64,000 nucleotides of DNA from assembly GCA_038997165.1 (NCBI GenBank), contig JAWBAK010000001.1, positions 338,337 to 402,336 on the forward strand. The letters are read 5' to 3'. Positions 36,353-59,421 of the stretch are shown one piece after another. Positions within the stretch are counted from its first letter, which is position 1; the number at the start of each line of letters is the position of its first letter. A model generated the notes under the pieces. That model saw nothing but the letters and a program-made list of their open reading frames with translations, made no database searches and was not told where the DNA came from. The DNA is from Candidatus Aenigmatarchaeota archaeon. Its GTDB lineage: Archaea; Aenigmatarchaeota; Aenigmatarchaeia; CG10238-14; SpSt-28. Made by a program: the position numbers and the translations under genes.

Positions 36353-36501
36353 GCCGGGGTCGCCTAGTGGACATGGCGGCGGACTTGAGTGATAGATTGG
36401 CGTGAAACTGATAAGAGATATAAAAAATGATGTGGGTGTCGAAATAAGAAAGAAATCCGCTGGGCTCTAAGCCCGCGTGGGTTCGAATCCCACCCCCGGC
36501 G
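36353..36501 (+). tRNA. tRNA-Ser (TGA) with 65-nt intron at 37/38 (36390-36454)
   Basis: GCGGA-CT-TGA-G|intron|A-TCCGC; long variable arm; G73. Confidence 0.92.
36389..36454 (+). ncRNA. Intron-encoded box C/D-like sRNA
   Basis: GTGATAG-12nt-CTGA-15nt-ATGATGT-12nt-AAGA. Confidence 0.6.
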
Positions 36502-43486: not shown

Positions 43487-43586
43487 GCCGGGGTGGCGGA
43501 GCGGTTTCACGCGGCGGGCTGCAGGGTTTTGCGATTTATGAGCGATAGAAACCCGCAGATCCCGGGTTCAAATCCCGGCCCCGGCT
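43487..43586 (+). tRNA. tRNA-Cys (GCA) with 26-nt intron (43525-43550)
   Basis: GCGGG-CT-GCA-G|intron|A-CCCGC; U73. Confidence 0.92.
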
Positions 43587-53747: not shown

Positions 53748-53874
53748 TGCGGGGGGTGGGATTTGAACCCACGACGGCTCTACGCCATCGGGTTTCTTAT
53801 CATTTATTCAAAGCTTAAGATTTTATATCTTTATCTTAAGCCCGACGCCCTTGGCCAGGCTAGGCGACCCCCGC
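53748..53874 (-). tRNA. tRNA-Leu (TAA) with 41-nt intron (53794-53834)
   Basis: TCGGG-CT-TAA-G|intron|A-CCCGA; long variable arm; CUUA/UAAG splice helix. Confidence 0.92.
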
Positions 53875-57942: not shown

Positions 57943-58082
57943 GCCGGGGTCGCCTAGCGGAAATGGCGCCGGCCTCGAGTTAAATGATAAGCTCTGGGGT
58001 AGCTGAAAGATAATGATGATTTTGTTATAAGAGAAAGCCGGTGGGCTCTAAGCCCGCGTGGGTTCAAATCCCACCCCCGGCG
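57943..58082 (+). tRNA. tRNA-Ser (CGA) with 56-nt intron (57980-58035)
   Basis: CCGGC-CT-CGA-G|intron|A-GCCGG; long variable arm. Confidence 0.92.
57984..58032 (+). ncRNA. Intron-encoded box C/D sRNA
   Basis: ATGATAA-GCTCTGGGGTAG-CTGA-AAGATA-ATGATGA-TTTTGTTAT-AAGA. Confidence 0.75.
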
Positions 58083-59322: not shown

Positions 59323-59421
59323 TGGGGCCGCTGGGATTTGAACCCAGGTTAACGGGTTTCCTCATTTTATCGGTGCTCCATTTCTGGAGCCCGCCGTCCT
59401 ACCTGGCTAGACTACGGCCCC
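59323..59421 (-). tRNA. tRNA-Trp (CCA) with 26-nt intron (59358-59383)
   Basis: GCGGG-CT-CCA-G|intron|A-CCCGT. Confidence 0.92.

Follow-up and report, generated by a model that had tools for sequence, protein, structure and literature searches.

An intron of an aenigmatarchaeal tRNA-Leu(UAA) with an antisense element and a single D′/C′ motif in guide register with its own wobble nucleotide

Introduction

The target of a box C/D guide RNA is the nucleotide that lies opposite the fifth guide base upstream of box D or D′ (the N+5 rule). Among the introns of archaeal transfer RNAs (tRNAs), whose retention is an old question, that of tRNA-Trp has so far been the one clear case of an intron that serves its own tRNA, in the words of a 2014 review ‘a unique example’ (PMC4090602). 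As described for Haloferax volcanii and Pyrococcus (sR50; Clouet d'Orval et al. 2001), this intron lies at position 37/38 and carries, upstream of D′, an antisense element to the host anticodon loop that places nucleotide 34 at N+5; the pairing includes intron bases, so that the guide acts before splicing, and the guide and bulge-helix-bulge (BHB) structures are mutually exclusive. Here we describe the intron of a tRNA-Leu(UAA) gene, in a window of 64,000 nucleotides (nt) from the genome of a Candidatus Aenigmatarchaeota archaeon, that shares the position, the register, the pairing to intron bases and the mutually exclusive folds. The known Trp introns are 65-105 nt long, with four boxes (C, D′, C′ and D) and a second guide for U39 (PMC2584109, PMC4090602), whereas the Leu(UAA) intron has 41 nt (down to 23-26 nt in relatives), internal boxes D′ and C′ only and one guide. 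It also differs in its host, and the module is found with seven tRNA species in one genome. The module retains the nucleotide-34 part of the Trp design (antisense, D′, C′) and lacks boxes C and D together with the second guide.

Other described systems share parts of this arrangement. In one account the tRNA-Trp guides are ‘always intronic’ and the Met guide ‘always exonic’ (PMC2584109). Pyrococcus C/D small RNAs (sRNAs) are reported to target nucleotide 34 of Leu(CAA), Leu(UAA), Met and Trp, the same nucleotide in four of the seven tRNAs discussed here; except for Trp, those guides are described as stand-alone genes with full C/D and C′/D′ motifs, whereas here the guide element lies in the target's own intron and lacks boxes C and D (PMC7994747). 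The 2′-O-methylated nucleotides Um34 and Cm34 are reported in archaeal tRNAs (PMC7668247), and the eukaryotic Trm7-Trm734 of yeast is described as methylating nucleotide 34 of Phe, Trp and Leu. The tRNA-Met intron of Nanoarchaeum equitans, for which a C/D-like RNA was proposed, is likewise a non-Trp intron with C/D-like boxes in a DPANN archaeon, but it has 66 nt, is stable and abundant and has a reported box C and box D, and the available part of that report states no self-target (PMC3491384). The half-mer or ‘hemi’ C/D ribonucleoproteins (RNPs) of Hardin and Batey (2006) resemble the present module in having one kink-turn (K-turn) and one guide; they are laboratory constructs and site-unspecific, whereas the module here is natural, has a kink-loop (K-loop, C′/D′) in place of a terminal K-turn and is tethered to its substrate (PMC1635284). 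Our literature search, with most subscription journals outside it, turned up neither a Leu intron guide nor a single-K-loop intron guide, and a 2026 preprint on Asgard tRNA introns does not mention box C, guide, methylation, K-turn or L7Ae. An earlier reading of the letters of the window alone (the sequence-only reading) had held that intron self-guides are known for tRNA-Trp and not for tRNA-Leu, which agrees with the available text of four sources (PMC4090602, PMC2584109, PMC7994747, PMC3491384).

Intron architecture

With introns allowed, ARAGORN called the gene as tRNA-Leu(taa) with a 41-nt intron (C1 c[392084,392210]). It is the only Leu gene with a UAA anticodon in the genome; the remaining Leu genes have the anticodons caa, tag, gag and cag. 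The intron comprises, in order, a 13-nt spacer, the element AUCUUAAGCU, UUGA, AUAA, AUGAUAA and GAA (Table 1), and the position, sequence and segment order given in the sequence-only reading were reproduced exactly. That reading had also set apart the leading AUAAAGA and the trailing GAA; neither resembles a box, and the leading segment lacks conservation, its place being taken in relatives by spacers of 3 to 18 nt.

The element AUCUUAAGCU pairs with G30-G37 of the anticodon arm and with intron nucleotides 1-2. All 10 positions are paired, nine by Watson-Crick pairs and one by G-U, which bears out the proposed pairing of 10 base pairs (bp) with this qualification. The fifth base counted back from UUGA is an A, and its partner is U34 (53838), again as proposed. 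The antisense therefore stands in guide register, upstream of D′ with the target at the fifth position, in an uninterrupted run of 9 bp that starts from guide base 2. The duplex is contained in the minimum-energy structure of the whole pre-tRNA, which folds at -53 kcal/mol (z = -4.72), a stability equalled by 0 of 200 shuffled sequences.

Downstream of the antisense, UUGA-AUAA-AUGAUAA has the form of an internal D′/C′ K-loop, with tandem G.A pairs flanked by N2.N5 and N1-N6. No UGAUGA-like box is present in the spacer, and downstream of the C′ box only the tail GAA resembles NNGA, so a terminal K-turn of box C (RUGAUGA) and box D (CUGA) was not found. With terminal boxes C and D absent, the intron is not a complete C/D RNA and is instead a natural ‘half-mer’. 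Nor is it a Trp-type intron guide, since its host is tRNA-Leu(UAA) and it has one guide, for nucleotide 34 only. We inspected the intron ends visually for a terminal box C/D that would use GA dinucleotides of the tail and of the exon-intron junction, and rejected it because the junction base after nucleotide 37 varies (A, U or G in the seven introns described below).

A chance origin has to be weighed at this point. At 24.5% G+C, motifs that contain UGA are common in this genome, and CUUAAG is its own reverse complement, so that a duplication around it would produce complementarity as a by-product, a caveat that the sequence-only reading had itself raised. In 200,000 mononucleotide shuffles of the intron, however, a K-loop with both flanking pairs and an in-register run of at least 6 arose 10 times, and a run of 9 once. 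The intron of Leu(CAA) carries the non-palindromic CUCAAG / UUGAG, and five further anticodons, also non-palindromic, have their own matching antisense. Because the antisense differs with each anticodon, the palindrome caveat is removed. The module is moreover conserved across families with compensatory changes in antisense and boxes, and we regard chance or duplication as scarcely credible. The observation in the Leu(UAA) intron is thus confirmed, and the sequence supports the claimed architecture of antisense, D′-like box, short loop and C′-like box with nucleotide 34 at N+5.

Related introns in the genome

The genome has 651,930 bases in 4 contigs and encodes an archaeal signal recognition particle RNA and archaeal ribosomal RNAs (rRNAs). 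ARAGORN with introns allowed yields 47 tRNA genes, 15 of them intron-bearing. We defined the K-loop motif as NNGA, 2-8 nt and RUGANN, with N1 pairing N6 and N2 pairing N5 (U.U allowed). This motif occurs 700 times in 1,303,860 positions genome-wide. The 15 tRNA introns together comprise 507 nt, in which about 0.27 occurrences would be expected; ten of them contain the motif. Seven of the 15 introns, those of Leu-UAA, Leu-CAA, Gln-UUG, Trp-CCA, Met-CAU, Glu-UUC and Lys-UUU, also carry an antisense of 6-9 bp to nucleotides 31-37 of their own tRNA, with nucleotide 34 always opposite the fifth base, and in all seven the antisense covaries with the anticodon of the host. The likeness in order to the Trp intron that the sequence-only reading had pointed out therefore extends to five more introns. 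The Ala, Asp, Thr and Ile introns have no K-loop, no box-like motifs and no antisense. In the Trp intron the single-K-loop module is aimed at C34 and looks like a reduced version of the classical Trp intron guide.

The boxes change in concert. Within the genome UUGA occurs with ..UGAUAA or ..UGAAAG, CUGA with AUGAAGA, CCGA with AUGAGGA and GCGA with AUGAGCG, such that D′ bases 1-2 change jointly with C′ bases 6 and 5 while GA and UGA are invariant. In the non-canonical stem of a K-turn the pairing runs G.A, A.G, then U.U, then C-G; joint changes around a fixed GA and UGA are the pattern expected of the box C/D version of this stem. The seven host tRNAs all have a pyrimidine at position 34 and decode purine-ending codons of split boxes, where a rigid wobble base would be expected to guard against missense.

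Two further introns carry a K-loop aimed elsewhere. In the Cys intron, GGUUUU upstream of the K-loop pairs with the last two intron bases, A38, C39 and C40, so that the fifth base faces C39; this module is kept in seven genomes of the genus, with boxes that covary (GCGA/AUGAGC versus GUGA/AUGAUC). In the Tyr intron the bases upstream of the K-loop form 6 bp with the intron end, A38 and C39-G41, which again puts C39 at N+5. The introns of Ser(CGA) and Ser(UGA) have a fuller C/D-like box set, and no convincing target of their guides was identified, either within the host tRNA or among 10/10 matches to rRNA. The Ser(CGA) intron also gave the sole Rfam C/D match, to sR35 (13.9 bits, E = 6.5).

These tRNAs are easily missed or misnamed. 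Default ARAGORN called 0 of the 5 intron-bearing tRNAs of the window, tRNA-Leu(UAA) being among those missed. With introns allowed, it labelled Gln(UUG) and Lys(UUU) as ‘Stop(tta)’, Met(CAU) as ‘Ser(cga)’, and Thr(UGU) and an Ile-like UAU tRNA as ‘Ser(tga)’; the anticodons of the mislabelled genes were re-read from the anticodon-loop sequences.

Table 1. Coordinates of the Leu(UAA) intron elements and of other features discussed in the text. Unprefixed positions are those of the window.
Feature	Position	Strand	Basis or remark
tRNA-Leu(UAA) gene with intron	53748..53874	-	Rfam tRNA model, 43.9 bits against a gathering score of 29
Intron of tRNA-Leu(UAA), 41 nt, canonical 37/38 position	53794..53834	-	sequence; ARAGORN
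Target strand: G30, G31, C32, U33, U34 (53838), A35, A36, G37 and intron nt 1-2	53833..53842	-	pairing list
Spacer, intron nt 3-13; hairpin loop if the guide pairs in cis	53822..53832	-	length varies among relatives
Antisense (guide) element AUCUUAAGCU, intron nt 14-23	53812..53821	-	pairs with anticodon arm
D′-like box UUGA, intron nt 24-27	53808..53811	-	sequence
K-loop linker AUAA, 4 nt	53804..53807	-	sequence
C′-like box AUGAUAA; positions 5-6 (UA) opposite D′ positions 2-1 (UU)	53797..53803	-	sequence
Intron tail GAA; G closes the BHB helix with C32, the two As and A38 form the 3′ bulge	53794..53796	-	sequence
tRNA-Trp(CCA) anticodon arm and 26-nt intron with module (UGGAGCA, CCGA, UAAA, AUGAGGA)	59352..59394	-	model R1, 34.6 bits
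tRNA-Cys(GCA), 26-nt intron at 43525-43550	43514-43556	+	K-loop GCGA-UUU-AUGAGCG
tRNA-Tyr(GUA), 70-nt intron, locus L043	G000 C2:11128-11269		K-loop AUGA-UAAG-AUGAUUA at the intron end
tRNA-Ser(CGA), 56-nt intron	57943-58082	+	fuller C/D-like box set: AUGAUAA, 12-nt spacer, CUGA, 6-nt linker, AUGAUGA
tRNA-Ser(UGA), 65-nt intron	36353-36501	+	fuller C/D-like box set, no strict K-loop
Splicing endonuclease, one 398-residue open frame, fused multi-unit	G000 C2:3278-3769	-	two PF01974 matches
Canonical C/D sRNA	C1:263694-263742	+	both guides 10/10 Watson-Crick to 16S rRNA
Canonical C/D sRNA	C2:17980-18029	-	internal UUGA-UUUA-AUGAUAA; D′ guide 10/10 Watson-Crick to 16S

Conservation in relatives

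Leu loci of relatives were retrieved by a BLAST search with the whole 127-nt gene, a retrieval that rests on the exons and not on the architecture of the intron. Matches were found in 52 of 61 genomes of the same order. The antisense, NNGA and RUGA are present in the same order in 30 of the 30 intron-bearing tRNA-Leu(UAA or CAA) loci returned; the sequence-only reading had named orthologous introns without the boxes as evidence that would tell against it, and none was found among these 30. The strict K-loop rule holds in 27 of the 30, the others having an N1.N6 mismatch (L022 and L030) or a 12-nt linker (L034). The spacer before the antisense ranges from 2 to 18 nt, and in a strain variant of the Leu(UAA) intron from a metagenome 9 nt of the spacer are missing; four DNA runs searched at 85% likeness gave mixed tRNA-Leu genes of other organisms, including intronless genes and different anticodon arms. 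Compensatory changes occur in both parts of the module: L027 has an A at nucleotide 31 and the matching U in the guide, L031 combines UCGA with AUGAGAU, and several loci combine CUGA with AUGAAGA. The tRNA-Leu genes of L032 (G043) and L034 (G028) have a second intron in the 5′ half besides the guide-bearing one, and L034 includes two tandem tRNA-Leu(CAG) copies with 18-nt introns that lack a K-loop.

We also scanned 185,579 species genomes with an exact, narrow pattern for the Leu form, which gave 81 stretches, 80 of them listed as loci. Of these 80, 47 fall within genes called as tRNA-Leu, every one of which has matching anticodon and antisense bases; the record titles of the 47 read Aenigmatarchaeota or Aenigmarchaeota (33) or ‘uncultured archaeon’ (14). 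The other 33 listed loci fall outside tRNA calls, are mostly bacterial and were taken as chance hairpins.

A covariance model, R1, was built from 17 aligned arms and recovers the six seeded introns in the genome itself. Among 151 genomes drawn from across the phylum, 68 contain matches, at most 7 in any one; by family it matches 7/7 genomes of f1, 31/31 of f2 and fewer in other families.

For alignment we used 101 R1 matches from 100 sources, and 80 further matched stretches were fetched. The anticodons of the 101 aligned introns are CAA (36), UAA (18), UUG (14), CAU (13), CCA (9), UUU (6) and UUC (5). Across the 100 distinct rows, nucleotide 34 is paired with the guide without exception (57 C-G, 43 U-A), and nucleotides 35 and 36 form four and five pair types with it, respectively. 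Nucleotide 31, ordinarily a member of the anticodon stem, covaries with guide base 2, which it meets as G-C in 83, C-G in 5, A-U in 4 and U-A in 1 of the 94 in-register rows, with one mismatch. N1:N6 of D′/C′ is paired in 89 of 99 scored rows (U-A 72, C-G 13, U-G 4, other 10). Over the whole structure 93.6% of the cells are paired; the figure falls to 70.8% after shuffling of columns and to 22-53% if the 3′ partners are displaced by 1-3 columns. The base adjoining D′ is unconstrained in the 101 introns, and in canonical guide-substrate duplexes the base next to D′ is likewise unconstrained. The D′ box reads UUGA in 71, CUGA in 16 and another NNGA in 14, and the linker measures 2-9 nt.

A script parse placed nucleotide 34 in register in 94 of the 101 introns; inspected by eye, the remaining seven are explained by a C′ box that crosses the splice site, by a linker of 25 nt or by a single mismatched base 2. 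Both K-loop pairs together with an in-register run of at least 4 were found in 93. Of the eight exceptions, five show one flanking mismatch; the other three are an intron in which C′ extends over the splice site, an intron with a structured linker of 25 nt and an intron whose guide base 2 is mismatched. In the congeneric genome G003, the Leu(CAA), Trp and Met introns (L079, L083 and L084) share a short antisense, ..CGAGCU, with only 4 bp, to nucleotides 31-34.

These comparisons bear on whether the guide pairs in cis or in trans. An excised and possibly circularised intron, or a second pre-tRNA, could provide the guide, and a Nop5 dimer may bridge two single-K-loop RNAs. In vitro work on Haloferax tRNA-Trp is reported to have favoured trans action (PMC2584109, PMC7994747), and in several relatives (L028, L030, L079) the cis hairpin would have a loop of only 2-4 nt if all complementary bases paired. 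The pairing to intron nucleotides 1-2, however, covaries among relatives (AU/AU, UU/AA, CA/UG), so the partner of the antisense must be an unspliced precursor, that is, a target that still bears its intron. Pairing may be within one molecule or between two, and we give guidance in trans a low probability.

Splicing and folding

The four central pairs of a BHB can all form between C32-A35 and intron nucleotides 39-36 (G, A, A, U); the two bulges of 3 nt each, A36-G37-i1 and i40-i41-A38, carry the splice sites. The Leu(UAA) intron is therefore a candidate BHB intron in which the canonical motif can form by modelling, and the genome encodes a splicing endonuclease (Table 1). The tail GAA followed by A38 is kept in 93 of the 101 aligned introns. 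Thirty-eight of the 101, mostly U34 tRNAs, are paired throughout the central BHB helix, and most C34 tRNAs have an A.C mismatch at nucleotide 34 in it.

The BHB helix reuses C′ box bases 5-7 and the following G, and because these bases are shared the K-loop and the BHB are mutually exclusive; the guide duplex and the anticodon stem likewise exclude each other. In the 58-nt arm the guide hairpin has a computed stability of -10.4 to -11.0 kcal/mol, versus -5.5 for the best BHB-containing fold. Being the stabler conformer, the guide hairpin is predicted to form by default and to hide the 5′ splice site.

Such folding could also serve a structural or timing switch that involves no methylation. The hairpin would mask both the anticodon and the 5′ splice site, with L7Ae recruited to the K-loop as an RNA chaperone, so that folding or the timing of splicing is controlled at high temperature with no role for fibrillarin. 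The exclusive conformers that share the 3′ half of C′, the greater stability of the hairpin and the absence of terminal C/D boxes all fit this explanation; the 4-bp pairing in some relatives suits a hairpin better than a guide, and the BHB helix, imperfect in most C34 tRNAs, makes help with splicing conceivable. A switch does not account, however, for a duplex that always abuts the D′-like box with nucleotide 34 (nucleotide 39 in Cys and Tyr) at N+5, nor for a host set that matches known C/D-guided targets of 2′-O-methylation at position 34, and the Ala, Asp, Thr and Ile introns, which have no K-loop, are presumably spliced without such a device. We consider it unlikely.

C/D components

The genome encodes the partner proteins of a C/D RNP: fibrillarin (269.5 bits), Nop5 (155.3 bits) and L7Ae (106.3 bits) were all matched above the Pfam cut-offs, and the fibrillarin gene adjoins that of Nop5. 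Among other candidate methyltransferases, an FtsJ-like match is weak (27.4 bits, cut-off 24.1) and a SpoU-like match lies below its cut-off.

Only two stand-alone C/D sRNAs are retrieved from the genome by a strict four-box regular expression, which matches no tRNA intron. Three of the four guides of these sRNAs match 16S rRNA at 10/10 Watson-Crick positions. The second sRNA has the same type of K-loop as the Leu(UAA) intron, which implies that the organism uses a degenerate UUGA-N4-AUGAUAA in a bona fide guide RNA. Since the strict pattern finds only these two, the intron half-guides outnumber them. Of the 700 K-loops in the genome, five have an upstream 10 nt exactly complementary to rRNA or tRNA, against two with shuffled guides; three of these five come from the two genuine sRNAs, a fourth lies antisense to 16S itself and the fifth is AT-rich. 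A stand-alone guide for U34 of tRNA-Leu(UAA) was not found at exact 10-nt complementarity genome-wide.

Discussion

We propose that the Leu(UAA) intron is probably a cis-acting box C′/D′ guide for Um34 that works before splicing. In the unspliced pre-tRNA intron nucleotides 15-23 of the antisense would pair with G31-G37 and the first intron bases, opening the lower anticodon stem, and UUGA, the 4-nt linker and AUGAUAA would fold into a K-loop with two sheared G.A pairs flanked by U.U and U-A. L7Ae would bind the K-loop, and Nop5-fibrillarin would then join. As the duplex abuts the D′-like box, U34 is opposite the fifth guide base and would be the position 2′-O-methylated by fibrillarin. Once the RNP leaves, the arm would refold into the anticodon stem and the BHB, reusing the 3′ half of C′, and only then would the endonuclease cut.

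The nucleotide-34 register, the covariation across seven anticodons, the complete set of 30 loci retrieved by their exons, the K-loop shared with an sRNA, the presence of the C/D proteins and the greater stability of the guide hairpin relative to the BHB conformer all support a guide. The placement of C39 at N+5 by the Cys and Tyr antisense supports it as well, as C39 is described as the second site of the Haloferax tRNA-Trp intron guide (PMC2584109), and a guide is biologically sensible in view of the Pyrococcus C/D sRNAs against the wobble base of two Leu tRNAs, Met and Trp, the Um34 and Cm34 of archaeal tRNAs and the activity of Trm7-Trm734 on nucleotide 34.

Several points weigh against this proposal. 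Boxes C and D are both missing from the intron, and single-site C/D complexes are reported to be active in vitro with their site specificity lost (PMC1635284). The 4-bp antisense of G003, which ends at the target nucleotide, is below the canonical need of a guide and is unexplained if a guide duplex must have at least 7 bp. A hairpin beside a K-loop that served only to control folding or splicing would covary in the same way. The percentages from the 101-intron set are partly circular, because R1 rewards pairs and spacing; the unbiased support is the 30/30 Leu set and the complete census of introns in the genome itself. Rfam C/D families gave no match at E values up to 10 among the module introns, and the weak FtsJ-like match leaves a protein-only methylating enzyme possible. 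The 16 datasets that contain the locus are all DNA contigs from hot-spring metagenomes, which cannot reveal splicing or expression, and none is RNA.

Taken jointly, the introns suggest a wider arrangement that we offer tentatively, as a possibility somewhat short of even. This lineage of very small genomes may use its C/D machinery mainly on tRNA wobble bases, through natural half-guides with a single K-loop. Each tRNA that has a pyrimidine at position 34 and decodes a purine-ending split box (Leu UUR, Gln CAA, Glu GAA, Lys AAA, Trp and Met) would carry one in its intron, with additional nucleotide-39 half-guides in the Cys and Tyr introns. The introns would be kept because they are guides, and the substrate tether, or one Nop5 dimer bridging two pre-tRNAs, would replace the missing box C/D motif in the choice of site. 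If so, RNA-guided methylation would exist here in a minimal, possibly ancestral-like form, and the retention of tRNA introns would have a direct functional cause.

Seven tRNAs of one 652-kb genome, with orthologues across an archaeal class, carry a module of 20-25 nt that looks built for methylation of their own wobble base. If it acts in this way, one K-loop suffices in vivo for site-specific guidance, contrary to the doubts raised by half-complexes in vitro, and the module would be a very small natural scaffold for programmable 2′-O-methylation. Intron retention would then be explained in exactly those tRNAs in which restriction of the wobble base prevents missense.

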